Position numbers and translations under genes: made by a program. A DNA stretch of 49,706 nt, taken from positions 1 through 49,706 of the forward strand of contig JAHLWZ010000912.1 in NCBI GenBank assembly GCA_020536535.1, read 5' to 3'. The notes under the pieces were generated by a model. The model was not told the DNA's origin and made no database searches. It was given only the letters and a program-made list of their open reading frames with translations. Positions 7,897 through 49,706 of this stretch are shown piece by piece (position 1 is the first letter of the stretch; each line of letters begins with the position of its first letter). Source of the DNA: Pelomyxa schiedti. Taxonomy: Eukaryota > Protista > Evosea.

Positions 7897-10471
7897 ATGT
7901 CGGGGTCCTACGAAAGAACGACGCACAAGCGCCTGTGCCCAACGCCGGACCAAGTCGACTGGGCCCTGTCCCACGTCCTCGGTGGCGTGCCCCTCTACGA
8001 GCTGGTGGAGGAGGAAGCTCCCCTCTTCCGCGTCTTCTCCGGGGCCGTGGCCTGCCTCCGCCCGTCGGACCCCGGTCCCGCCGCCGCCGCCGCCGTCGCC
8101 GTTGTCCCCGAGGTGGTCCCGCCTGCTGCCTCGGCGGCGTCCTGGGACGTGGGGAGGCTTGGGGCGCTGGAGGAGCGTGTGGTGGACTCGGTCTTTGCCG
8201 TGGCGACGCGCGAGTGCAGGGTGCTGTATACTTATAAATCGTTTCTGGTCGATCTGATGCTGGGCCTGTTGCGGCTATTGGGGGCTCCGAACCGCGATGA
8301 GGGCGCGGCAGAGAATGTGGGAGGTACTTATGGGAACCGCGATACTGGCTCCACGGCAAGATTCAGTACTAGTGCTAATTCTGGTTCTAGTTCCAGTGGA
8401 TTATAATAGTTATGAGAATACTATTGCGATTGCTAATTTGAATGCTACAGAAGTGGGAAGTACACCCAATTCGATACTGTCAAAATTGCTAAGAATACCG
8501 CCTGCATTTTTTGCGAAGAATATGGACAAACTGCAGGAGATATTTATGGGCCCATATCCACCAGAATGGAAGTCATTCCTATGCCAAGCTCTAGTTGATT
8601 CAGTCTCAAGTCGTACTGCAGCTCTTGCACCCAAAATGTACACCAGTAGGTTGTCCTCTTCATGGTCTCAAGGCATTGAATCAATCAAAATATTGCAGCA
8701 ACTTTTATGGAATGAATCCTTCAGGTTGCTTGTATGTCCCCTGGAGAGCCGCCTCATGGAAATCATCACTGTAGGATTGAACCTCTGTTCGCAGGGTAAG
8801 TTGATTCCAAACGTAGTGGAGCTATACACATCTTTACTGCATGCTAGTGTGGAACTCCCACTGGCTACAAGGAAGGCAACTGAGTTAGTGCTCTTCCATC
8901 TTTCTACTATTTCAACATCAAATTACTCCGTCTTGTATGCTCTCAAGCATTGGCAGACCCTCAGTGACATTAAATATGCAGAAGACGTTACTCCACAGTT
9001 GCTAGAAGCGATTCTAACCAGAATGCCTTACCTCAACTGGTGGAGCGAGACTTATAGCTGCAATTTTGCCTTGATAGAGTGTATAGTGTGCATTCTCCAC
9101 GGTTTTTTGGAGGTCAAGCCCTCAATTCATTCAACGCTTGCCCTCTTCACTGAATCGAACCTCTCCTCTGATTCTCCAGTGAGGAAGGCATCAGCAGTAG
9201 TTTCTCTGGCTGCCCTTTCTTTAACCTGCTGTAAGTTCTCCAGTCATTTGGCCGAAAAAAGTATTCTGTTGTCTTTTTCAGGAGACAAAGGCCTTCAAAT
9301 ACTTGGGTCTTCTCTCTTTTCTATTCACAATATTCTCCAAAATATTGACGGCTTTATCCCTGCTGAGGAGTTGTTCCACAAAGCCATCGGCAGTGTACAA
9401 AACGAAACTTCTTTCTTACCTGCATTGAGTATAATGAGGAATATGATCAAACTTCCGCTGGGACAGCAGTGTATGGGAGATTTTTCCTCGTTTTTATCTG
9501 TTCTCCTAGAACACTCTCTTCTACCTACCATAGTTGATTTGCATTCGACTATTCCTGATTGGTCTACTCTACTCACTGAAAAGGAACTGCACCGAGCTGG
9601 AAAGACCTTCAAAATTAAATCAAAACATTATCCACTGGTGCAGGATAAAGTGAGTGAGATAATTGTTGATATTATAGGGGTTGTAATACTGCATATTGAA
9701 GACAGGCAGGATCTACTTCTATTAAAGCTTTGTGAACTCCTGAGAAGAAACCCAGATCCAAGTATCCCAGCTATAGTTAGGTACTTCTCTTCAATGAAGA
9801 AAGACGCGTCACTACTGAGGCTTTTCATTTCTCCCGATATGGAGGAGAATACCCTTAAATGTGCCGTTGAAATGAACTCTGCTGCTATTGTAGAGCACAT
9901 TCTCAAAAATCCGCAATGCCCAATAAATTTCGACGCCCATCTCAGTCTAGCCTGCGGTTTACCCAACACACTTACCTGTGCAAAGGTTCTACTCCAAATG
10001 GGTGCTAATTCAAACATGTCAGAAAAAGGAGTTACACTAATCGAATCGCTAGTGGGCAGTACAGTTGATGACCACTTTTCAGCAATTTCGCTCCTTTTGG
10101 AATTTGGTGCGCTTGTGGATAGCGCTATACTGGAAAAGGCTATCAGGAGTGGGAAGAGGAGGGTAGCAGACCTGCTGTGGTGCCACGGAGTACAAATTAC
10201 GCACCAGTTTTCAAGTGGTTTTCCGCAGCTTTCTTACATGTTATATGCACCAATGTGGTCACCATCACACCACCAGCTTTTCTCCCACAAGTTCAAGAAC
10301 ATCCTCAAAATAATTCTGCTTTGCTGGTACCGGAATGCCACAACATTCCATTCCTCCCAATTACATCAAAGAAATACCTTTGCTGAGTGTATTCATCCTA
10401 TTGGGAGACTGGCTTCCAATGAGATACACCACGTGATTGGCTTTCTGTCTCCTGTGGACTTTGCTTGTTGA
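7897..10471 (+). CDS. Hypothetical protein (~835 aa) with C-terminal ankyrin-like repeats
   Basis: Exon 7897-8323, then GT-AG intron 8324-8390, splices in frame to a 2.08-kb exon. Ankyrin-like segments LKCAVEMNSAAIVEHIL, LSLACG..CAKVLLQMGAN, LEKAIRSGKRRVADLL. Confidence 0.75.
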
Positions 10472-20416: not shown

Positions 20417-22626
20417 TCAAGGGTCTGATACAAGCTGATCCCAGTCTGCCACTGTGAGTAGGAATTGCCCCAGTGTGTAGGAGCTGCACACCGTGGTTCC
20501 GTTTACCAATGGCCAGAGGATCCTGAGCATAGGCCTGCTGATGTCAGCCGGTCGGAAAAGGCTGAGAACCTCCCGCCACTGATCTGCAAGTCTTGCTGGA
20601 GCCTTTTCGCGCGGACCGATACTGAACTCTATGGTACTCAGAACCTGCATGTGCATGAGGAGGAATATCCAAATATAGAAAAAAAAAAATACATACCGAA
20701 GTAAGGCTGATTTGGAACTTGTGCCAGACCCACAGTGCACAGCCTCGCTTATTGTTCTCGATCAATCCAACAAAGAGAGAAGCTGCGTCCTCCAGGTTGG
20801 AACTGTTAATATCAAATTCTGACACTAACCACTTGACAACTTTGCTGGAGAAACATGTGTACTTTGTCAATATACTTGAAATTTCTTCCCGGGAGAACGC
20901 AGCGAGTGACACCAACTCCTTTACCTGTGATAAGGTACCGAATGTCGAGAATGATTTCAGCACAGTAAGGCACCACACCTGTGGCAACACCCCGGCTTTC
21001 AGGAGTGACAAGCCGGAGTTGATGAGTGTAGGACTGTCCTGCTGCACCTCTTCAGCCATGGTCGGTGAGAAAGTCACATCGCACTTGCCACCGCACTTGT
21101 CAAATAGCCACTTTATGCAATCGCGCTGGGTTAAATAACCTCTGTATTTGTGTATCGGAGCAAACACATAACACACAGGTTTCAGAAAAACGACTGGCTT
21201 AGCACTGTATATCCGGAGATAGAGCGCAATAAGCCACTCAACGATCTTTTCGTTCTGCAAACAAATTGCCCTCTGAAGTGAATCCAAAAGTATCTTAGAG
21301 CTAGGGGTAGTGGCGGTGTCAATAAATATCTTTTGGTACAACCACTTGACAAAGTTCAAGTTGTCTTCTCTGTTTCCACACGCAGCAATGAGGTCTTTGG
21401 AACTAAACGTGACAGATTTCTCTTCATTGAACCACACTGCAAGTTCAATACTTGGAAACATCTCGCACCAGGCAGTACAAATCTCCTTGCTCTCTTTTTC
21501 TCCAGACTTTGTAAAAATCCACTTGAAAACTTCTGGGTGCTTTGGTATTCTCGAGTCATCGACAAAGAAGGATCTAAATTCGAGATGGAACTTATTTTTG
21601 AGCCACTTGCACACTGAGAGAACTTCATCTGCTGATGATTTTTTGCAGCGGGCAGCTGAGACACAGACCACCGAAGAGGAGTGTCTCCACTGGGGGAATG
21701 CCTCCACAAGTCTCTTAATGTCCTGAACTCCATGCTTTGGCTTTAGCAAAGAGCTTACTTCCCAATTTGTGTCTGCAAATGAGAACTGGCTTGTGAGCCA
21801 TAAAAGGAGGTCCACTTGAACACCAATGATTGCATTCAGCAGTGCCCGCCGGTTCCACCGTTCCTCATCAATGGGAAATGCGGAAAGTACCCACTTGAGC
21901 ACATCCAGGTGCCCTCCTTTGCATACTCCTTCAATTAACTCAATAATGCCCCGCTGACTCCACACTTCGTTAACGAACACTCTAATGTCATCATTAGACA
22001 ACGCCAGGTCGCGGGTCAACTTTCATATGGTAAGTCAGATTGCCAAGGGAAAAGAAAATGAGAACCTTTGGATAGTCAGCTCCAGAAGAGGAGTAACCGG
22101 CAGGGAAGAATTTGGCAGTAGGGAGCAGCCACTTAACTGAGCCCCAAGTTACACCCCTCTCCACAAAAGACCTGGCGTCCTCCAAATGCCCACCATGACA
22201 CAGTCCAACTAACACAGCAACACTCTCCTTGGCTTCCCTCATTGCCTTACGTGTCCTGCTACCTAAGATATCACCACAGTCACTGCTGTTACTGTTGCTA
22301 TTGACATTGTGATTGTGGTGTAACAGCCACGAGGCACAACGTGGGCACCTTGACATTGCACAGCACCTCAGAGGGAAGTAGTGCGAAATTGGGCAGTTGG
22401 TGCGGTGACGTAACATCGACGTCACCGCACTGCAACACAGCGCCACGAGGGGGAACATGGCCTCGCCGACGCTCAGCAACGTGATTATGGGTTTGGCGGT
22501 CACCCTAACCACCACGTCGCGGTCCGTTGGAGGGCACAACCACGGGCGCACGACGTTGTCCCACACAAGACGGGACACTCTCAGCACCAGTTCTTTCTGG
22601 GACTCCTTGTGTGTTGCCGTGATCAC
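20417..22626 (-). CDS. Degenerate ankyrin-like repeat protein (expanded lineage-specific family); start codon not identified
   Basis: Repeated motifs LCHGGHLEDA, VCKGGHLDVLKWVLS, AACGN..NLNFVKWL, FSSKVVKWLVSEF. Three exons. Confidence 0.65.
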
Positions 22627-25942: not shown

Positions 25943-26070
25943 TGAAAGGCAAAACAAAAACGGCAGTACGGTCTGTCACTGTTTCCTTTTTAGTAACTTA
26001 AAGAAAAAAAGCAGCTGGTTTTTCTTTTTCTTTTATTCATTTACTCTGGAATACGGAGGAGACAAACAGT

Positions 26071-28467
26071 TTAATGGCCGTGAGTTGGTGTGGTGGTAGC
26101 GGGCTTGCTGGACTTGAGGATGATTCTGCCGTCGACGACGAAGATTCCTTGGCCTTGCTCGTAGACCATGATCGGGTTGGCGTCAACCTCGGCAACTTCG
26201 TCGCTGAGGTCGGTGACGAGCTGGGAGATGCGGGATACGGCGACAGCGAGGGCCTCGACGTCGCGGGGCTTCTCGCCACGGGCGCCAGAGAGCATTGGGT
26301 AGCACTTGATCTCGGGGAGCATGACCCTGGCCTCCTCGACGGTGAAGGGCGCAACCCTGAAGGTGACGTCCTTGAGCACTTCCACGAAGATTCCTCCCAT
26401 TCCGAACATGACTGTGGGTCCGAATGTGGAGTCGTTGACAGAGCCCACAATGACCTCCTTGCCCCAGTCGGCCATGCTGCAGACTATGATGCCGTGAATG
26501 TCGGCGGCGGCGTTGTAGGCAAGGGCGTTCTCCCTGATCTTGTTGTACCAGAGGCGGGCTGTGGCGTCGTCACGGATGTTGACCTTCACACCGCCTGCAT
26601 CAGACTTGTGGATGATCTATAGGGGATAGGTAAGACATCTCATCGTTAGAGAGGAAGGAGCGGTACCTGTGGGGAGACGATCTTCATCACAACGGGGTAG
26701 CCAATTTCGTTGGCCTTGGCAACAGCATCATCCTCGGAGGTGGCGACCAAGAACTTGGGGACTGGCAAGTTGTAGGCAACGAAGACAGACTTAGACTCTG
26801 GCTCAGTGAGTAAATCACGGCCCTGAGCACGGGCACCAGCGATGATGGCCATGGCCTTAGCCTTTGAGGTCACGGTGTCGGGGAAGGGTGTGAAGGGGAC
26901 GTAAGGTCGAGCCTGGAATTGACCGTACTTGCGAAGAGCACCGAGGGCGCACATTGTGCTCTTGGGATCGGCGTAAACGGGGATGGCCTTGTCCATGAGG
27001 TAGTAGCTGGCATCGACACTGAGTTTGCCACCAACATAGCAGCAGACCATGGGCTTCTTGATGGGAGAGTTCTTGTAAGCACGCTCGATGGCCTCAGAAA
27101 TGGCCATGGGGGTTGTAACGGCGGTCTCGCAGTAGAGAACAGCAATACCGTGTACCCATGGGTGCTGAAGAGCAATGCCAATTGAATCTTCATATCCCTT
27201 AGCACCGGAACCACCAGTAATATCGACTGGGTTCTTAGGGGAGCCGAAGCTTGGCATGCATTTGTACAACAAATCCTAGGAACGTTAGGTGGAAAATGCT
27301 AGAGTGAGGGATCGAGACCTGGAGATCTTGGGGAGCAGACTTCAGAGGAATACCACAGAACTCTGCGGAATCTGTTGACAAGACACCAATACCACCACCA
27401 TTGGTAATAACCAACACGTTGTCACCAAGCATGGGTGGCTGCATAGAAAGAGCCTGGGAGGAAACCAAGAGTTCTTCAAGGTCCATAGCTCTGATTACTT
27501 TAGCCTAAGAAGAATGAGCACCACAGGTGTCAGAAATAATAACAAACCTGGTTGAATGCGGCATCGTAAATCTTAACGGCACCTGCAAGAGAGCCAGTGT
27601 GGGAGGCTGCGGCAGCTGCACCGTGGGCGGAAACACCGCTCTTAAGACCAATAATGGGCTTGGTGCATTGTCGACCAGCATCAATGAATGCGCGGCCGTT
27701 CTTAACACCTTCAACGTAGAGGGCGATGCATTGAGTGCTCGCGTCATGAGAGAGGTAGTTAATGGTATCAGCGAAGTCCACATCCGCCATGTTACCAAGG
27801 GAAACCATGCTGCTGCAGCCGAAGTGGCGCAGGAAAGTGGTACCATCCAAGGCAATGAGTAAAGCTCCACTCTGAGAGACCAAAGCTGTGCCACCACGGT
27901 ATGGCAAGTAGGGAGCAAAGCTGGCATTTGCGTTGCAGCTGTTCAGCAGGAGACCAACAATGTTGGGTCCAACGATTCTACCGCCAGAAGCGTGAGCAAT
28001 TCGAACCATCTCTTCCTCCTCAGCGTGGTTTCCTACCTCACTGAAACCAGATGTGATGACAACGTGACCCTTCACGCGCTTAGCAGCGGCTTCGCGGCAG
28101 CAGCCAACAACGAACTTGGCGGGAACTGTGTAGACAGCAAGGTCAATTTCTTCCAAGGGCACTTCACCAATGGTTCGGTACGCCTTGATACCATTGATCT
28201 AATTCACAGTTAAAAACCACTCAAAGCGTGATCAAACAGCAGAGTTCGAGATTGCATGTGGTGTGGCGGTGGCACCGAAAAAAACGAGGAGTCGACGAGT
28301 GGTCGATAGGAAAGTGTACGTACATCGGGTGCTGTAGGATTGATCGGGAAGAGTTTTCCGGTGTACTTGCTGTCAATCAAGTTTTGGACGACCAAGTTTC
28401 CGATGCTGTTGGGCTTGGACGAGGCACCAATAATCGCGATACTTGTTGGGTTGAAGATGCGGTCCAT
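26071..28467 (-). CDS. Acetate-CoA ligase (ADP-forming acetyl-CoA synthetase), fused alpha+beta subunits
   Basis: FNPTSIAIIGAS, ITSGFSE, IVGPNIVG, LVSQSGAL, SLGNMADVD, AAASHTGSLAG (phospho-His), ITNGGGIGV, NPVDITG, ATP-grasp GYPVVMK..HKSDAGGV, FGPTVMFGMGG, EVDANP. Strong codon bias. Confidence 0.95.
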
Positions 28468-28700
28468 GTGTTATGTGGCAAAAAAAAGTTGGTGCTGCTG
28501 CCGCTTACTTGGGAGATCTTGGGTTTTTTAGGTTTTATGTTATCAAAAAAGTAAAGTTTTAAAGCCGAGGAGAAAAAATTAAGATCGTGACGAAGCAACT
28601 GCAATTGCAGATATTTAGAGTAGAAATGCTAAATCTCTAAAGCAACATAATTGAATTCGTTCATTCAAATTAATTAATGGTCGTTCTGTCAGTGTCTGGC

Positions 28701-30591: not shown

Positions 30592-33535
30592 CTAGTTTTC
30601 CAACTGGGTGTTCCAGTTTTCGAAGTTCTGGAAGGCTTGCTCCTCGAGATGTTTGAGATCAGGAAAAACCTTTGAGATAGAGTGAATAAGTGGTATTACA
30701 ATAGCCGGTATGAAGGTGCTCTGTTAAAGTTTGTGACTATTCACTGTAACAACAAGAAATAAACCTGGATTTGTGCAGCACTGGCTTTGATCGCCTGGGA
30801 ACATATTTTGTGCGTACACTCGTCTTCTTCTTGGGCGTGGAACTCCTCCATCTGCCGAAGACTCCACATCTCACATTCGTTCCACTCTCTGAAGGAATCA
30901 GAGAGGTCGGCAGCTTTGACCAATATCTGAAGTATAAGCAATTTAATCTTTCCGTCAATTGGTCTGCTCAGCGGTTCCTCACTTTGTGTACTCCATGAAT
31001 TAAAAGTCTTTAGGAATGCAACGTGCCTGTTGTAATATTAGTTGAATGGAAATTTGACACTGCTGTTACTTTGCCATATCAGTTGCCAGCACCAAGCTTG
31101 TGCATAGCGAATGCAATTCTAACTGTTGAGATCTCGGCATAGAGCTCAGTGCCATACAGTCTGGATCGGACCACAAAAGTTCGAAGGCTCTGTGAATGTG
31201 AAACCGCTCCAATGCGGATTCCCCATGTTGAATAAAAATTTTGTGCTGAGTCGAGGCAAGGAAACTGTTATTTCTGCCTGGGTGCCCGTAGTCGTGTATC
31301 AGGGCTGTCAAGAGACATGCAAACAATTCCATTGGTGTGATGAGAGATCGAAGTGTTGCTGAAGCTTGTCTCACTTTGTCGATTAAATAAAATAAGCTGT
31401 GCGTCACAGCAGCGGCATGCATTTTATTGTGATAAGGATTCCCTGAACTGTCGGGATTCTCAAATTGGTGAAAGCAGTAGCACTTATCGAGTCGACTGAC
31501 AAACTCAAGTAGTTTGTTTAGGTCTATAGGCAGATAGTCCAAATTCCAATGCTTAATGACCGCAATAGTAAGCATGGGAAGTAAACCAATGGAGTTTTCC
31601 CCTGAACCATTGTTTTTAGACTTCGTCTGGAGGACTTATTAGATGTGTACAACAATGTAGCCATACCTCAACTTCAAGTACATTGAACCGCCAAGAAGTA
31701 ATGTCAATGTCAATGCTGGGGGAATTTGCAGTCAAAACCTGGCTCCAGTGTTCACTGGGAGTTTTCTTGTTTTTACATTCCCCTGCACTCTGCTCCTTGA
31801 GATCGATTCCAGCTAAATGAAGCAATTGAATTTGTGAGTGACTAAAGTTTTCCCAGTTCCCTGCAATTGCAGATCGGTGTTGTTTGGTTTCATTACTTTT
31901 TTTAATTGACGAAACCAGCTGTGGCGAATTAGTAAATTCCAGAAAAAGAAATGCATAGACCTCTGTAATCTTATCACCGCCAGAATTACACTGGACACAC
32001 TCTCTGGAGGAGTTAAAGACTCGCATTTCAACATGGGAGTCGTCTATCTTGTTACCAATTCGGAACAGTTTGAGTTGGAATGCCGCGTAGACTGCAACAA
32101 ACTAGTCCAAATAAGAAAAGTAAGTAAATAATAGACAAACCATTGCAGATATGACTACAACACAGCCAAGCAAAATGGAAACAAGTAAGACCATTGTCTT
32201 TGCTTTACGTTGTTCATGCAGTGCAGATTGCTGGTCAACAACTACTAGGACTATCCACTTTGCTCGCTCCACCCAATTCCATGATATCAACCGTACAGAA
32301 GTTCCATTGAAAGAAACCTTGCCTTGTCCAGAAGAAATAGCGCAATACGTCATATTTCCAGCACAGATGAGGGATGCAAGTTCAATGTAATCTGGGTTTT
32401 GAAAAAAATTCCATCTCTTCTGGTTGTAGTTCATTGTATCCTGACACTCTTTCGTATAATTGAAATTATCATATTCTGGAGCCCAGTCTTTAGCACCAAT
32501 GGAAGGAATTTCCAGCAACGTTCCATCCTGAGACGCGATCACAACATAGGCACTGAAAGGAAGAGAGGTGCTCAAATCTTCAGCATATGTAAGGAACTGT
32601 GCTGTGGAGATATCAAAGCCCGCTACACCCAAGTATGCATCGGTTTCAATGTCGTATACTGGGGCGGAAGCGGTCACCATCCACACTCCTGTCAGTCTGT
32701 CACGATAGGGATCGGTCCAGACTTGCAATCGGAAGGGATTGTGGATTGGATTCAATTGCAAAGGGCGGGTGTTATTTGGAAGGTAGAGATATGTTCTGAA
32801 TAGTGGTTGGAAGGGGTATAGGAACAGGTATGCGTTAATTTTTGAAAAGACATCCAGTACTGTGCCGTTCCATGCTTGCATGATTCCTTTGAGGATGCAG
32901 CCAAGTCCTCCCGTCCTTATAAATAGTTTTTCAATAATTGCATCATAGGTGGGTGAGGTGCTGTTGTTGTATCTGGAGAAAAATAAGAGGTAGGAAAATG
33001 GAAGGTACAGAAAGCCTACAGATTAGCTTCGTAGAGTACTGCCGATGGGCCACCAAAGTCTGTCCATGTAGCAAACACTGAAACGTTAGGGTGCGACGGA
33101 TAGGACCGCACAGATGGACCGTAACAAGACATTTCCGATGCAGTAGGTATTCTTGGCGTTGCCATTGCGGACGCAAAGGCTATCTCGAAAGAGTCCAGTG
33201 CCACTCCAATTCCATAAAGTTGAGCGTCAAGATGAGCACTGGCATCAATCGTAATACGGACAATAGCATCAGAAGATGCCTTCACAAGAGTGTTGTACCT
33301 TTTTTTGGAAAAAAAAAAAGACACAGTCAGCAAGAGGGCCAAAAAGGTGATGTTATGGGAGAAGAAGAACTTGCATGCTTTGGCTGGTTGTAACAACAAT
33401 GGAAATGAGCGCAACGATAATAACGGTCGAGACGGCACACATGAGCCCAATCACAAAGTCCACCATGCAAGCACGTGTGCGTTCCGACCTGAACAGTGCA
33501 TCAACATCGCTGGTCTCGTCATCCTTGTGTGGCAT
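30592..33535 (-). CDS. Transmembrane Cache-domain class I 3',5'-cyclic nucleotide phosphodiesterase
   Basis: TM1 (FVIGLMCAVSTVIIVALISIVV), extracellular Cache-like region (VWTDPYRD..GVWMVTASAPVYD...YLGVAGFDI), TM2 (VLLVSILLGCVVVISAMVCLLF). PDE core: SWRFNVLE, NPYHNKMHA, IHDYGHPGRNN, VLATDMAKH, LVKAADLS. Confidence 0.85.
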
Positions 33536-33932
33536 AGTTCTTCTTGTGAGATCTCCGCCTCTTTCTTCGTTTGTTGTGACTGACGGCAGCCAGCCGCGGC
33601 GAAACTTTCCTGCTTTTTTATTTGTGTATGTCACGCACTTCAATTCCTAGTGTTTGACTACGCCTAAATACGCATCGGCTTGTTGATGCCCTTCTTTATT
33701 TGTGCATGTCACTTTTATCTACCGAACTTGACTTCTTCTGTGGTTGAACAGCCCCGGCCGATCTTGAACAGAAAAGAGAAGGTTTGGCGTACTAGGGGCG
33801 AGATCCCTCAATACCCAGAATACGCTATTCTATTCTCCCCAATCACCATCACAGCACGCCTCAGTGTTTTAAATCTCCAGTATACCGAAGAACCGGTGCC
33901 GGTACCGAGAGGACCCAGATTTAGCCCTTTGA

Positions 33933-35687
33933 ATGGCCAACGGGCTTGCGTTGGGCTTGGTTGCGTGTGTGGTTATTGTTGGGGTAGCCTCACTGTGCTA
34001 CGACGAACTGCCCGCCGCCATTGATGAGATCTTTGACGACTGTGGGGCTGAGTGCGACCGGGAGCGATGGGGTGTTTTGGCACAAATAGCTGGCCCCACA
34101 ACTCTGTACAGCCTCGACGCAGACAATGTTGCCTTTTTTTTTTTTTTTACTCTTTATTTCCTTCTTTGTTTCCCCAACTAACTCACACACAAAACAACAA
34201 AACAACCCACAACAAATTGTTTGTTGTAGTACTTCGTCCCTGCATCGAATAATAAGCTCTTGACATGTGGTGCACTGTGGAGCTCGGTTGGGGGTGACTT
34301 TGCGTACAGAACTCCTTTGTACTACTCACCAGATGAACAAGCACTCTGTCTCGTTGGTTTCTTCCCTGTCTCTTTATCGTGCTCTTATTTGAAAGTTCAG
34401 GCAGTGGGGACCCCACAATAACGACGGAAGCTCTTCAGTCTATGACCTCTTTTGTGGCAAGCCAGTTTGGCCTCCTTGTCATTTTATACCCTAAAAACTC
34501 TCCAGGGGCATTTCTCCTGTTAAATTAAAGGTTGATCCATCTATATTCGCGCCGTACGCGTATTTCTTCTCCTGGGAATGGGAAGACATGTCTGCCGATT
34601 ATGGAGCCCTTCCTGTTTCACTCATTGTCAACGGCAACACAATTGAAATTAAGGTGATTGGCGGGGATACTGAAGGGTCTCCAGCACAAGTTTTTTTTAC
34701 CGACTCGGCAGAGGAAAACTTGACGGAGGTTACATTTGTTAAATTACTTTAATGTATTTCACAGTTTTTTTCCTTTCAAAGTATTCTAAATCGCACAACA
34801 GGTTGTAAACTTAGTTCAAACTGTGGGGTATTCACACGCAGTCCCCCTAGGTGTATGGGGATCATATAAGCTCGGTACAAATATTCTGCAAATTGTAGGG
34901 TTTGTGGAACCTCGCACCACACACGTTATAGCAGTTTCAGCATTGCCTCCAGAGGAACACTTTTTAGGCCTCTTATCAAATTTGATGAAACAATCGGGAG
35001 TATGCTCATTGCAAATTTGAATAAAAGCTGAAAATTTGAAGGTTTCCATAACTGGACAAGAACTTGAGGCATGTAATCCAGATGGCAATCCCTCCTGGAT
35101 TAAACTTTATGATATCGTATCTGTACCACTGGCCACAATTATGAACGATACCCTTCAAAATTCTGTTAATATTAATGCTGAGTGCTTTCTTAACACATAT
35201 GGGGCAATGTACGCACCAAATTCATCCGCAACAGATGCTGTTAAATCGAAGCTGGAGACTCTGTCAGTGGATCCCAGTGGTTTGTTCTTCCTGCAGTGAA
35301 TTGTGAAATAACAAACAACAAGGTTTCCACCAAACAGATGGCTCTGGCCTCAGTAAAAATAACCTAGTGTCACCAGAATCACTTGCCCAACTCCTATGGG
35401 CACTATCCAAAGACCAGGAATTCATAAGTATGCTCCCTGTAGCAGGGGTTTCAGGCACACTACAGGACAGGTTTATTGGCACTCCAGCAGAGGGGGTGGT
35501 TCACGCCAAAACTGGAACAGTGACTGGTGTATCAGCATTGAGTGGCTATGTGATAGGAGGTGGAGATGGTGATGGTGAGATGGTTGTGTTTAGTGTTATT
35601 GTGAATCACTCAGCCCGCACCACTGATGAGCAGCATGAAACCATGGACCAAATTGTAGTTTTGTTTGCAGAAATGGTTCCATGTTGA
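33933..35687 (+). CDS. dacB: D-alanyl-D-alanine carboxypeptidase/endopeptidase (PBP4/DacB, peptidase S13), secreted
   Basis: Signal peptide. All three penicillin-binding motifs: SxxK (PASNNKLLT), SxN (NSVNINAE), KTG (HAKTGTVTGVSALSGYV). Also GSGDPT and DGSGLSKNN. Several introns. Confidence 0.9.
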
Positions 35688-35800
35688 AGGAACGTTAGAA
35701 AACAAGGATAAAAAAGGCACTTTTTCTATTTTCTTTCGTTTTCTTGTAGTTTACTTTTTTCTGTGTGTGTCACCACACACAGGGCACCAAACAACACCAA

Positions 35801-37167
35801 TCACATAACCTGCAACTTTCTATCCTCCCAGCCAACAAGGTGCTTGTGATCCTCAAAAAGTCTGGTTATCTCAGCAACGAACCTCGTGTGTACTTCGGCG
35901 ACTTGTTGGTCTGTTGGTGATGGTATGTGTGGAACTTTCAGTGGCCGGCCAACTACTTCAATTACGCGGGCTGGGAACGGAATCGGGAGACCGTAGCGGC
36001 CCCAACACAGAGGTATACTCACACGCAGCTTACGGGATAGCCATGTTAGAAATGGTGAATCAAGCTGGTGCAAAACCTAGGGGGTGTGATCAAAAGGCAA
36101 ATGGTGAAGTTGCGGAATGACCTGGGAGTTCCCAAAGTGATAGCATGGTAATAGGTCACAGCCGTGCACCATGGCTAGCTTAACAAAACCTGTGCGAGAT
36201 GCGAGGAAGACTCTCTCCACTTTGTGTGATGTCAACATTAGCTCGGCAATCCCCCCTGGAATTACACAGACATGTCTGCCAGCCTTCAGCTCATTTCCAA
36301 GTGTTTTCCAGTCGGCGCGCACCACTCCCAGCCAACCAAAAATATGTCTCCATAAAGGTAATCTCACAACCACATCAGCGGCCGCTCCTGCAAATGGACG
36401 ACCCCCAAAGGCAAGGGTATCCAGGCTCTCCCTGTAGACCAAGTTGGTGGCCATAAACAGTCCAACAGGAAATATCCCATGAGGCACTTCAGGGATTACA
36501 TACGGCTATTGGAAGATTATGAAATAAGTTGGGAGGGAAAAAAGAAAAAAGCCTCACCTTGTCGGATTTTAGGGCCGAAACATCTTCAATCACCAAAGAG
36601 AACCTGAAATATGCACACCACAACCTGAATATCGGATTTGCGCAAAAAGCCCGCCACTGCTTCACCTTTCTTGGGAATATAGTAAGCAGCACAAAACAGC
36701 ACAGTACTGCTGTCCACATCCACCTACAATATCCCAGCACCCTAGGGAAAGGGGGGGGGAAAAAAAAAAAAAACCCAAGTTGTCAATACAACGCAACCAC
36801 CTTCAGGGGAGAGAGAATTATGGTGCCAAGACAACACAACGAAAATCACAAACGGGGTGTGGGGTGCACAGTGTGTTTGGCGCAAACAAGTCAGAATCCG
36901 AGTCCTAATCAACAACCACACGCACAAGCAAGCGACGGCGACGACAGGCAGGAAGGGGACCCACGCCAGCACCATCCCGAACACCACCATCGTGCCACAC
37001 GCCCCGAGGGTGACGTACCACCGCGGGAGCCGGTCTCCCTGCCCCCCGCGAGCAACCCCGTGCCCGTACACCACAACCCCCGCGGCCGCCGCCGCCGTCG
37101 CTGATCCGTCGCCTTCGTTCTCGTTGTGCTCCTGCTGCTGGAGCCTGTTGGTTGGGGAGCCCGACAT
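35801..37167 (-). CDS. Diacylglycerol/monoacylglycerol O-acyltransferase 2 (DGAT2 family)
   Basis: N-terminal TM, AYFRF, PHGIFP, VIPGGIAE, RTGFVKLAM..GCDLLPCYHFG, VVGRPL. Confidence 0.88.
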
Positions 37168-40711: not shown

Positions 40712-43038
40712 ATGTTTAAGAAAGCACACGCGGTACGCAAGCGGCGTTGTTGTCGTTGTTGTGGGAGATCTCACTGTGGGTTTTAGGTGGACAAGAAGCT
40801 CCTTTTGTCTTCATCCGAGTCACGAAAATTACGGCAGCAGATCTCCACGCAGTTCGCACGTGCAACGCAAGCAGATGTGACTGATTTGTTACCACCAAAG
40901 ACACCCATTACCAAGGTACATAGTCCCCCCCCATTAATGTAATGATGGGTTTCTCACATTTTTGTTTCCCTGAAGGTGTTCATTACAACGTTTACTGGGA
41001 AGACGGGGAGAGTGTATTTTGTAGCCGGGGACCCACTCTTTTTTTCTATTGAAGAGTCGGAAAAACTATACCCAACAGGTAAGCTTCACATCAATTAGTG
41101 AAAACCTCATTGTCACAGTGTACTCACTGTGGCGTGCACCACATTTAGTGGAAACCATAAGTGTCTTTCCCAAAGTGTTGGATTTTGTTCAAAATGGGGC
41201 AGGTAATGCAAACCTATTAAAACCTGAGCCTTTGGTATTGACTTATTTCAGATATAATGCTGCCTGGCGTAGCCTCTGGCTTTCATGATGAAAATAATCA
41301 TTTACTATCATGGAATCTCGGGGATACACGTTCTGTTATACTACATCCCTCATCCCCTGTTATGTGTGTGGGGACGTTGGTGTGCCAGAAGATCGATGTT
41401 GCTCAAAAAAGGGGCAAGTGCCTGCAAGTTCTTCACTCCTACAAGGACCACCTCTGGTTTGTGGGTACGATGTGAACGAAGAAATTAACGTCTTTAAAGG
41501 GCTACTGGATCGAAAACTGATGCTCCGGACCACCCATTGCGGGACACATCATCAACTAATCCACAATGCACATCACCTTCTACTAGCCCTGCCTTAGAAT
41601 CACCTGAGCGAGCGTGTTCCCCATTATCCACTTCAAGTCAGTCCTCCTTTGGAGAAGTGGACCAAGCAGACTTGGATAGTACAGAGCACACCACAAGTGC
41701 ATCACCGACCCCAACTGCGACTACCACAACAACAACCTCAACAAGTCCCACATGTAATTTAGATGAACAGGCCATCTCGTACATAGTTCTTTGTCTTGCA
41801 ACTCTCATACCCCCTCAGAATAATCACTATTGCTCTGTCGAAGGTTCCAGATGATTCTCTACCGATTTTGGCATCGAAATTCCATGCGACTTACCTCTCA
41901 TCCTCAATGTTTCTTCCTCTCCTCCCCTTTTTTTCTCTGATCAACATTTTCAGCCCCCCAGGTGTGACTCTTGACCTGACCAAAACTTCTTTCAAGAAGT
42001 TATCCCAACTTCTCAAGCACATGTGCACTAAAGGGTTTTTGTCCTTAATGACTGATCCTCATGGCACCCTGTTCATCATGGCTGTTGATAGAAGTAAACT
42101 CAAGTATCACTTCCAAATGCGGTACGAAGTTTCATCCTTAAACAGGGAAGTAGGAACCCCTCAAGTGGAGGAGGCCGCACCAAAGGAAGTGCAACCAATC
42201 GCGGAGCAAGTCTACACACTACCTTCCGCACTGTTAACTTGGTTTCATCAGTTTGGTTTGTCTGCCAGGTTTTTCCCATGGGATATTTTTCCTGATTAAA
42301 ATATGTGTACAGTAAGGTTGATCCAGTTCGTAAGTCTCAGATTCGGGATGCAATTAATGCCTGGATCTCACGGCAGCACAAAGTAAACCCCTTTTTACTG
42401 GATAATACTCACTCTGTCCAGGGAGAATCCCCACCATTCGTATTGGGCCCTGCCCTTGGTGCTGCTCTGTCAACAAATCCCCATACAGCAGTTGATTTAG
42501 ATGAACTCGAATCAATGCAAGCATTTGTATTTTACAACGCCGCATGGCTAATTTAACAAATCTGCAGGATACTTAAGAAGTTACAGCCTTGTGTGCTTAT
42601 TAATAGACCTGGCATTCCTGCTTCAAGAAGGCTCAGGTTGTTAATACCTTGTTAAAACGAAGAGTAACTCTAAGTAGTCCCGGGAAAATTAAGACCATCA
42701 CGATTTCAACAGCAAGGAGCAAAGGCTATAGATTCGTGACACTGGTCACCAATTTAGATGTTTGCGAACTACTTCTGTACTTATTATTCACATTAAAAAC
42801 AGTCATTTGGGTATGAACTTGAGGCACTCGTACCTACATTTCAAGCACACTTCGCCGCTAGTTGTGTAATCCAAGAAGCAGATGACGGCTCATCTGTGCT
42901 GTCCGTCCAAGGGAAAAACGTTAATGTAAGCTTAACAGAACTTCCAGACTTTAAAATAACTACAAACAGAAAATGGTGGAATTCCTGGTTGAACATTTAC
43001 GAATACCTCGCGACTCGATCACCATCAACAGTGAATGA
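40712..43038 (+). CDS. EIF2D: Eukaryotic translation initiation factor 2D (ligatin)
   Basis: MFKKAHA|VDKKLLLSSSESRKLR, PTVYSLW, NGADIMLPGV (PUA), DHLW, DLTKTSFKKLSQLL, and C-terminal SUI1 (RFVTLVTNL...AASC...SVQG). Confidence 0.85.
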
Positions 43039-48592: not shown

Positions 48593-49706
48593 TCAAATGT
48601 ATCCATTCATTCCAAGATGAATAAAATACTTTGTGCCTCTTTGTTCTCTTTTGGTGCAGTTTCCCACCCAAGGAAACAGTGCATCCTGTGCATGCAGGGG
48701 ATAGTGAAGGGAGCTGAATAATTGGTCCTGTGGACCATGTCCATGTCCAGGAAGAAGCATGCCAATCTCAATGGATCTTACCCACTGCTTAGCCACCAGC
48801 ATTCCACAGTATAAGAATGAGGTCATGCATTTATTTACAGTGGCGTTTTCAAAGGTCAGGTACAGTTTCTTGTATTGAAAGCGGTTCTTGGCTGTGCCAG
48901 TCTGCCTGGCAAGGGGGATGGGTAAAAACATCCTGGTAAGATTCTGATGGAGAATTGAAAGAACTATGTTGGAATTGTTATTCCATATGTCCGGGTATAA
49001 TAGCCCTGTCTTGGTTCCCCAAATCCTGGATGCCCATGATGTGCAAAGCATACTTTGCACAACCCTGAGAGAGAGTCGTACACCTCCGAAAATGAGGCAG
49101 AACGAGATGTTGCTTAGCATCCATGCACACAGCACCCAATTCAGCTGGGAAGTTTCTTGCCTTGGCATATTTATGGTCTTGGTACCAAGGTGAAGCTTGG
49201 TGTGTGCATCAATGGTCCCAATAAGACTAGAAGTTATCCACTCCATGGAACTCCTCTGCTTTGCAGATTCTCTGGAACAGCGGAGATCAAGAGCCCCTCT
49301 ATTCCCAAAGTTAACAAATTTGGACAAACACTGCCCTCACTCTCACCTGTTTTACCTGGACCCATCTATGTATGCATGGAGATTGGTAAGGCGCTCATGT
49401 CCAATTCCATAAAAAAAGCAAAATGCTGCTCGCACACAGTCCTCCCTGTGTTGACTGGTGTCAAAACGAAGGGAAATTGAAAATAGAGATCGTAATGGAA
49501 ATGAGAGTGATAACGGAAACACCTTTGAACATGTACATGTGGTGAGTGAAATTTTTGCAGTTTTTCCACCAAGTATGTATCTTGATCAGCTTTTATTTTG
49601 GAGTGTAGTTTCACTCGGTGTTGTTCAATTTCAGCAGGAGTAAAAGCTGTCACACAATTCCTCAGGCAGCACTGTATTACAGCTTGAGCGGCGCACGTTG
49701 CTGACA
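48593..49706 (-). mobile_element. Degenerate DDD/E transposase (Sola-like), running off the window end
   Basis: NSNIVLSIL...KKLYLTFENATVNKC..FLYCGMLV...IEIGMLLPGHGHGPQDQLFS resembles the LYLxxDN..NK..GHTH..DQxFS transposase core as I recall it. Upstream frames are broken. Confidence 0.6.

Follow-up and report, generated by a model that had tools for sequence, protein, structure and literature searches.

Gene model and context of the locus

The window analysed here is the whole 49,706-nucleotide stretch of DNA from the anaerobic amoeba Pelomyxa schiedti, and its minus strand carries one gene with an ATG at 33535 and a stop codon ending at 30592. The first-pass annotation had marked this interval as a phosphodiesterase (PDE) wired to an extracellular Cache sensor; its limits coincide exactly with the start and stop of the gene, and the observation is real and wider in extent than was first noted. 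Removal of seven introns, each 39-76 bp long and canonical at its ends, yields a single 870-aa frame, in which TM1, a double-Cache ectodomain, TM2, a heptad coiled coil, a linker and a class I PDE domain follow one another. The features, all on the minus strand, are:

30592..33535, minus: whole coding span, 8 exons, 870 aa, one frame; agrees with the public protein P0001 except at intron 1
33535-33375, 33298-33020, 32972-32141, 32101-31961, 31918-31667, 31626-31070, 31026-30765 and 30720-30592, minus: exons of the 870-aa model
33386..33466, minus: TM1, about residues 24-50, a predicted signal anchor (hydropathy), running into the Cache stalk helix (AF2 helix 10-95)
33299..33374, minus: intron 1, read as GC-AG, which keeps a short stretch common to the paralogues; without RNA cover
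32207..33385, minus: predicted double-Cache (dCache_1-type) ectodomain; it bears 8 N-glycosylation sequons and retains Y231 and D262 of the distal pocket
32283..32300, minus: 18 bp, in frame, coding for 6 aa of the proximal Cache module; the contigs of RNA runs X3 and X4 lack them
32078..32194, minus: TM2, about residues 407-432 of the 870-aa model, spanning intron 3 and followed by basic residues
32015..32077, minus: predicted juxtamembrane heptad coiled coil continuing TM2 (AF2 helix 394-449)
31697..32014, minus: helical linker, conserved in the family; P0001 lacks about 19 residues of it (the second helix)
30595..31696, minus: class I PDE catalytic domain (Pfam); introns 6 and 7 are spliced in an RNA contig

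Searching with exon 3 recovers P0001, a Pelomyxa schiedti protein of 865 aa annotated only as a cAMP-specific PDE4, whose numbering is used below unless the 870-aa model is stated. Its intron 1 is drawn as GT-AG (33370-33280) and drops the stretch common to the paralogues. The public gene model likely misplaces this intron; the GC-AG reading restores the shared stretch, and GC-AG introns are given as 1.59% of introns in the genome report for this species (PMC8887013).

Among the RNA contigs of runs X1-X4, one from X1 has the last two introns (6 and 7) spliced, the sole introns confirmed by RNA, and X2 reaches two exon pieces within the ectodomain. None of the contigs from these four runs joins the Cache half to the PDE half; the contigs are shallow, so the missing cover is evidence neither way. 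This partial cover of each half is what speaks for two adjacent genes having been joined by gene prediction, an explanation that is very improbable, as the short introns keep one frame with no room for a second promoter and the fusion occurs on single transcript ORFs in seven Mastigella genes. Because the same fusion is found in four more Pelomyxa proteins, in those Mastigella genes and in further records, it is not an artefact of the gene model, and fusion of the two halves on one ORF is supported. The 18-bp-shorter form comes from X3 and X4, which represent one sample; since the form in the window matches the paralogues, the shorter one probably reflects a derived allele or else an artefact of amplification.

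The neighbourhood is varied. Divergent from the PDE gene, an intron-containing gene on the plus strand (~33930-35690) encodes a D-Ala-D-Ala carboxypeptidase of the Peptidase_S13 family (PBP4/DacB type), hydrophobic at its N-terminus. It is an enzyme of bacterial cell walls residing in an amoeba, and may have been acquired by lateral transfer for use on prey or symbionts. On the minus strand, ~26070-28550 encodes CoA-binding, CoA-ligase and ATP-grasp domains, the set known from the ADP-forming acetyl-CoA synthetase of anaerobic protists. Pfam further identifies a Diacylglycerol acyltransferase exon (35804-36076, minus), an eIF2D winged-helix exon (41796-42296, plus), DUF7869 (48596-49327, minus) and a weak ankyrin match (20547-22019, minus), and an ORF of 724 codons (8297-10471, plus) has no Pfam match.

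Ectodomain fold and membrane topology

Two hydrophobic segments flank a region of ~350 aa. In P0001 this region matches MCP-like_PDC_1 (E 2.1e-7, 31.8 bits, cut-off 27), whereas dCache_1 (E 4e-4, 20.4 bits) stays below its cut-off of 45. NCBIfam gives no family above cut-off for seven proteins.

The fold is better seen in structural models. An AF2 model of the protein (16-row alignment, mean pLDDT 76.9, pTM 0.44) predicts that TM1 runs into a long stalk helix, followed by two mixed modules, TM2 extended as a helix to residue 449, a low-confidence linker (435-534, pLDDT under 50) and a confident PDE domain. A stalk helix followed by two PAS-like modules in tandem, with a TM helix on either side, is the Cache architecture, and the model predicts it. 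For a model of exon 3 only (256 aa, pLDDT 77.0), the top Foldseek matches are all double-Cache domains (E down to 1e-11), and VIA puts 3li8 at the head of its list (198 residues superposed at an rmsd of 3.5 A, Z 13.4). PscC, PctD and further domains of the double-Cache kind come next, and PAS entries begin only at Z 8.4. The Cache fold that had been proposed from the letters is thereby borne out.

Basic residues precede TM1 and follow TM2. Across 16 proteins, N-glycosylation sequons number 65 in 5417 ectodomain residues and 35 in 7992 cytosolic residues, a density 2.7x higher outside (p 1e-6, a value to be read with the paralogues not being independent). From the flanking basic residues and the sequon density we infer that the ectodomain is extracellular and the PDE cytosolic. 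Together with the hydrophobic segments and the AF2 helices, this agrees with the TM-Cache-TM-PDE topology suggested initially.

Coiled coil and linker

In the model the last TM helix runs on as a coiled coil towards the PDE, the layout expected of a receptor-type class I PDE with an Rh-PDE-like mode of action. Heptad positions 431, 434, 438, 441, 445 and 448 of P0001 are hydrophobic in 15-16 of the 16 family rows, and P0001 itself carries a Ser at 441. The linker of this copy scores 60 bits against 107-170 for its full-length paralogues and is the lowest of the full-length members.

A UCR2-like linker was also considered. The profile alignment ran into PDE4 UCR2 with a gain of ~3 bits, which is not significant, and the claim was dropped; the linker profile ranks sponge PDE4 UCR2 12th of 132, a rank reached by 23/200 shuffles. 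Among the 25 of 38 families listed for 16 members, PF18100 (PDE4_UCR) is absent, so the public name "PDE4" is unsupported.

Catalytic domain

PDEase_I (PF00233) matches residues 615-850 of P0001 (E 3.1e-53, 181.4 bits, cut-off 24.8), and the AF2 PDE domain matches PDE4 and PDE8 (Foldseek E 1.5e-15 to PDE4D). The metal ligands and catalytic His are intact, as in 14/14 paralogues (H616, H620, H661, D662, H665, E690, H693, D733, D776), and the metal ligands, the invariant Gln (Q823) and the clamp Phe (F826) agree with 12-14 of the 14. All motifs picked out in the first-pass annotation are present (YHNKMH, HDYGH, ATD, AD, HAAAV, LERFH and DLSD). It had named three of them as deviations: HAAAV and DLSD are indeed unusual, whereas LERFH is no defect, LERxH being the family norm.

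Four positions, chosen after the deviations were seen, are rare outside the family: A623, Ala for the Asp of HAAD (0/137 non-family domains); D779, Asp for the Asn of DLSN (0/141); Q794, Gln at the second clamp position (1/139, with V, I, L or M in 134/139); and E802, Glu for the Gly of QG (0/138). The M-loop is also three residues shorter, which is unusual. For comparison, Asp occupies the position of PDE4D Asn321 in active PDE2A, and Ile336 of PDE4D is what we take to be the second clamp residue. The roles of Gln369, Phe372 and Asn321 in PDE4D, the equivalents of P0001 residues, are described in PMC11311937. An unbiased count finds that P0001 departs from consensus at 3/28 conserved columns, like several siblings; 15/158 domains have three or more such departures. 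The other polar or aromatic clamp substitutions occur in five domains, three of which are the first domain of tandem-PDE proteins, and two of those three lack metal ligands.

These observations bear on whether the family consists of receptor PDEs of which this copy has eroded, being weakly active or uncoupled, a modifier, a heterodimer partner, or a gene in decay. The lowest linker score among full-length members, the four rare substitutions near the substrate pocket with the shortened M-loop, the association of clamp substitutions with tandem-PDE first domains and the in-frame deletion allele all point in this direction. Set against them are the intact metal ligands, invariant Gln and clamp Phe, a sibling-like number of column departures as opposed to four positions picked post hoc, a gene that is transcribed and spliced, and a short ectodomain branch (0.65) in the tree described below; this reading of the copy is held to be unlikely. 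Its PDE domain probably retains activity despite an altered pocket, and is no clear pseudo-enzyme, because the metal ligands are kept and the departure count resembles that of the siblings. The changes suggest lower affinity or changed specificity of the substrate pocket in this copy.

Separately, P0026, P0059, P0112 and P0066 are tandem two-PDE proteins whose first domain lacks metal or pocket residues; these first domains are probable pseudo-PDE regulatory domains.

The amoebal family and its exchanged sensors

The gene is part of an expanded family in these amoebae. Relatives were drawn from the best 150 of 8953 hits of an exhaustive search, 30 of which were looked up, and the paralogue counts, taken from protein collections, are lower bounds; word-index searches matched P0001 only. 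The same ectodomain and PDE combination occurs in at least four more Pelomyxa proteins among the matches listed (five with P0001), in at least seven Mastigella eilhardi Trinity genes that carry both halves on one transcript ORF, and in at least five ENA/JGI records, one of them incomplete. All members with this ectodomain have the heptad pattern directly after TM2 and the conserved linker.

In a quick PDE-domain tree (67 hand-picked domains, isoforms left out, two dropped for coverage, SH-aLRT only), the Cache-PDE family forms a 19-row clade (SH-aLRT 98) within a 41-row clade (93, unstarred), whose 20 species-labelled rows are all Pelomyxa, Mastigella or Mastigamoeba. Within the larger clade, a second, distant Cache-like ectodomain, with weak Pfam matches only, is carried by P0028, P0032, P0037, P0038 and kin, and further ectodomains are NMT1-like, SBP_bac_3, Peripla_BP_6, Ig/cadherin and VWA. 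Outside it, P0045 and P0093 bear a further Cache-like domain on a PDE. Given these other ectodomains and the separate clade of P0045 and P0093, the coupling of sensors to PDEs arose more than once. The first-pass annotation had neither placed the gene in a receptor-type PDE family whose sensors have been exchanged nor recognized P0001 as one of its more eroded members, with a missing linker helix and pocket changes.

Membrane PDEs with other ectodomains of bacterial type (P0030, P0024, P0025, P0071, P0029, P0039, P0064, P0085, P0093, P0098 and P0060) show NMT1/THI5, SBP_bac_3, Peripla_BP_6, SBP_bac_1/8, VWA with Cache-like, PBP with Cache, and Ig/cadherin types. The Chloropicon PDE P0039 is the bearer of SBP_bac (SBP_bac_1/8) domains, and in P0090 an Ion_trans-like membrane domain is fused to a class I PDE.

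Bacterial relatives and probable origin of the sensor

A tblastn search with exon 3 against plasmid records detects sensor kinases in 11 records, covering up to 96% of the query (best E 4e-14), and the amoebal-bacterial alignment spans TM1 to TM2, family-specific insertions included. A pattern scan of genomes finds at least 556 relatives among 600 candidates, 80 of which were kept. The amoebal ectodomain profile matches 85 ORFs across all 84 bacterial loci (L001-L084; median E 1.2e-41), and the bacterial profile matches P0001 at 1e-22; its match to the second Cache type is not significant. All 18 ORFs scanned for domains (4 from plasmids and 14 from genomes, chosen for varied length) are dCache_1-HisKA-HATPase kinases. 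Judged by these alignments, the whole TM-Cache-TM module is homologous to a family of bacterial sensor histidine kinases. Pattern scans for relatives of the amoebal ectodomain itself confirmed 0/58 candidates on genome contigs and 0/249 on metagenome contigs.

The scaffold residues are common to both groups, and pocket residues near-invariant in bacteria vary among the amoebal paralogues. Mean identity among the latter is 27% in the distal module and 34% in the proximal one; the bacterial figure of 70% is too high, since it was this region that supplied the scan patterns. An unrooted ectodomain tree of 17 amoebal and 23 bacterial rows, the latter picked by patterns derived from Proteobacteria, separates the two groups and names no donor. 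We infer that the sensor module was transferred from bacteria because of the narrow eukaryotic range seen within the best 150 of 8953 hits.

The loci L001-L084 represent a subfamily of dCache sensor kinases that is widespread in bacteria and hardly varies in its distal pocket, a good target for ligand screening in itself. A search for a solved structure of this subfamily found none, the best match being partial (E 1.9e-7).

Ligand motifs and the role of the pocket

The dCache_1AA motif is given as YxxxxRxW[YF] ... Y[27-34]D (PMC8915833). P0001 contains its amino-group half, Y231-x30-D262; the N-terminal half fails, with no Trp/Tyr pair after R211 (L213 and Q214 stand there) and R211 not conserved in the paralogues, so that P0001 does not match the amino-acid motif as a whole. 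Candidate distal-pocket residues kept in P0001 are Y231, D233, W239 and D262. The amine-sensor motif (dCache_1AM) is described as an aromatic cage, a pocket Asp and an insertion with an R/D pair (PMC10589655); D262 and an insertion are present, and PctD, PacA and McpX match at the level of the whole fold (Z 11-13). The purine motif dCache_1PU comprises five residues according to bioRxiv 2023.10.26.564149, and a position that is Gly in the purine sensor McpH is Asp in P0001. That P0001 binds an amine-bearing or other nitrogenous compound is only a guess; the ligand, the direction of regulation and the preferred nucleotide are not predictable.

The variability of the pocket among paralogues fits diversification but also loss of binding. 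It enters into another reading of the protein, as a constitutive membrane-anchored PDE in which the Cache domain serves folding, dimerization, localization or a partner protein, with no gating by a small ligand. The bacterial pocket residues are poorly kept while the scaffold residues are invariant, and membrane class I PDEs for which no sensor is known are common, as described for apicomplexan PDEs and Dictyostelium PDE4 (PMC11988041, PMC10865986). Simple anchoring would nevertheless require neither the 350-aa ectodomain and in-register coiled coil kept in all paralogues nor the different ligand-binding folds found in the same slot of related PDEs, and a constitutive anchor has only a small share of our belief.

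Proposed mechanism and its meaning

The reading we lean towards, with modest confidence, is a ligand-regulated, dimeric, one-component receptor PDE, in which a small molecule outside would change cAMP/cGMP breakdown inside. An amoebal ancestor would have taken the TM-Cache-TM module from a bacterial kinase, and the HAMP-kinase output would have been replaced by a coiled coil and the amoeba's own PDE. The ligand would bind the membrane-distal pocket of a protein acting as a dimer; TM2 and the coiled coil would then move, re-packing the linker and PDE dimer and so changing the PDE rate. Paralogues with varied pockets may sense different ligands. Cache signalling is reported to pass through the C-terminal TM (PMC8915833), and Rh-PDE is presented as a class I PDE controllable across the membrane via a dimeric helical linker (PMC7644710). 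Counted against the receptor reading are the absence of any matching ligand motif, the variation of bacterial pocket residues among the paralogues, the missing linker helix, the four rare pocket residues, the 6-residue-deletion allele and the lack of an RNA bridge.

On a wider view, which could equally hold or fail, Archamoebae possess a chemoreceptor repertoire built from PDEs, with bacterial sensors (Cache domains of two or more types, and several that bind solutes) on a common TM-coiled coil-class I PDE chassis, so that metabolites outside the cell would switch cAMP/cGMP breakdown without G protein or kinase. The present gene would be one member, its sensor derived from a bacterial histidine kinase.

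The known regulation of class I PDEs, which are drug targets, acts from inside the cell, and their known receptor form responds to light. If the receptor reading is true, the Pelomyxa protein would be the first class I PDE at a cell surface to be gated chemically. Such an enzyme would be to messenger breakdown what receptor cyclases are to synthesis, and would give eukaryotes a new way of sensing the surroundings, in which a bacterial two-component sensor has been re-wired to a eukaryotic second-messenger output. Its modular build would also lend itself as a chassis for the chemogenetic control of cAMP/cGMP. Since ligand screening of Cache ectodomains is routine, the claim can be put to a direct test. 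In Mastigamoeba, expanded cyclases and PDEs are described with their architecture not given (PMC8136499), and the same reading would provide a function for that unexplained PDE expansion.

Comparison with known systems

The bacterial dCache_1 histidine kinases share the whole TM-dCache-TM module with the amoebal proteins, family-specific insertions included, and differ in output (HAMP/PAS-HisKA-HATPase, as opposed to coiled coil and PDE) and in the distal pocket, near-invariant in the kinases and variable in amoebae. Structural neighbours of the ectodomain are mmHK1S-Z2 (3li8), PscC, PctD and Mlp37. Human PDE4, PDE7 and PDE8 have the same catalytic fold (TM-score 0.80-0.88 on target for catalytic-domain hits), metal ligands, Gln and clamp Phe, but are soluble and regulated by cytosolic UCR, PAS or REC modules. 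Receptor guanylyl and adenylyl cyclases with extracellular sensors follow the order ectodomain-TM-coiled coil-cyclic nucleotide enzyme; they make the messenger, whereas the Pelomyxa protein is predicted to destroy it.

Among eukaryotes, Cache domains are recorded in alpha2delta, in histidine kinases and in a cyclase, including a Naegleria Cache-adenylate cyclase, and the available sections of that survey give no dCache_1 in Amoebozoa (PMC4822843). No published account of a eukaryotic Cache-class I PDE receptor was found, within a search whose scope ended at subscription papers and bioRxiv supplements, and "PDEase" is absent from the available portions of the supplements of PMC8915833 (6 files) and PMC4822843 (files 1-14 and 18, some in part). 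The architecture may still be listed, uncommented, in domain databases.

Bacterial Cache-EAL and Cache-HD PDEs likewise place a Cache sensor on a messenger-degrading enzyme; as described in PMC8915833, their catalytic domains are unrelated or distant and act on c-di-GMP, whereas the Pelomyxa enzyme is a eukaryotic PDEase_I. Dictyostelium PDE4 and apicomplexan PDEs are protist class I PDEs with N-terminal TM helices, and the word Cache has 0 occurrences in either main text (PMC11988041, PMC10865986); Dictyostelium PDE4 differs further in being modelled there with an extracellular catalytic domain. Of the known systems, the closest analogue is Rh-PDE of Salpingoeca rosetta, portrayed as a membrane sensor whose last TM enters a dimeric helical linker and a cytosolic class I PDE, giving one-component control of cAMP/cGMP (PMC7644710). 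Its input is light, received by an 8-TM rhodopsin, whereas for the Pelomyxa protein a chemical input is predicted because of its two-TM double-Cache ectodomain.
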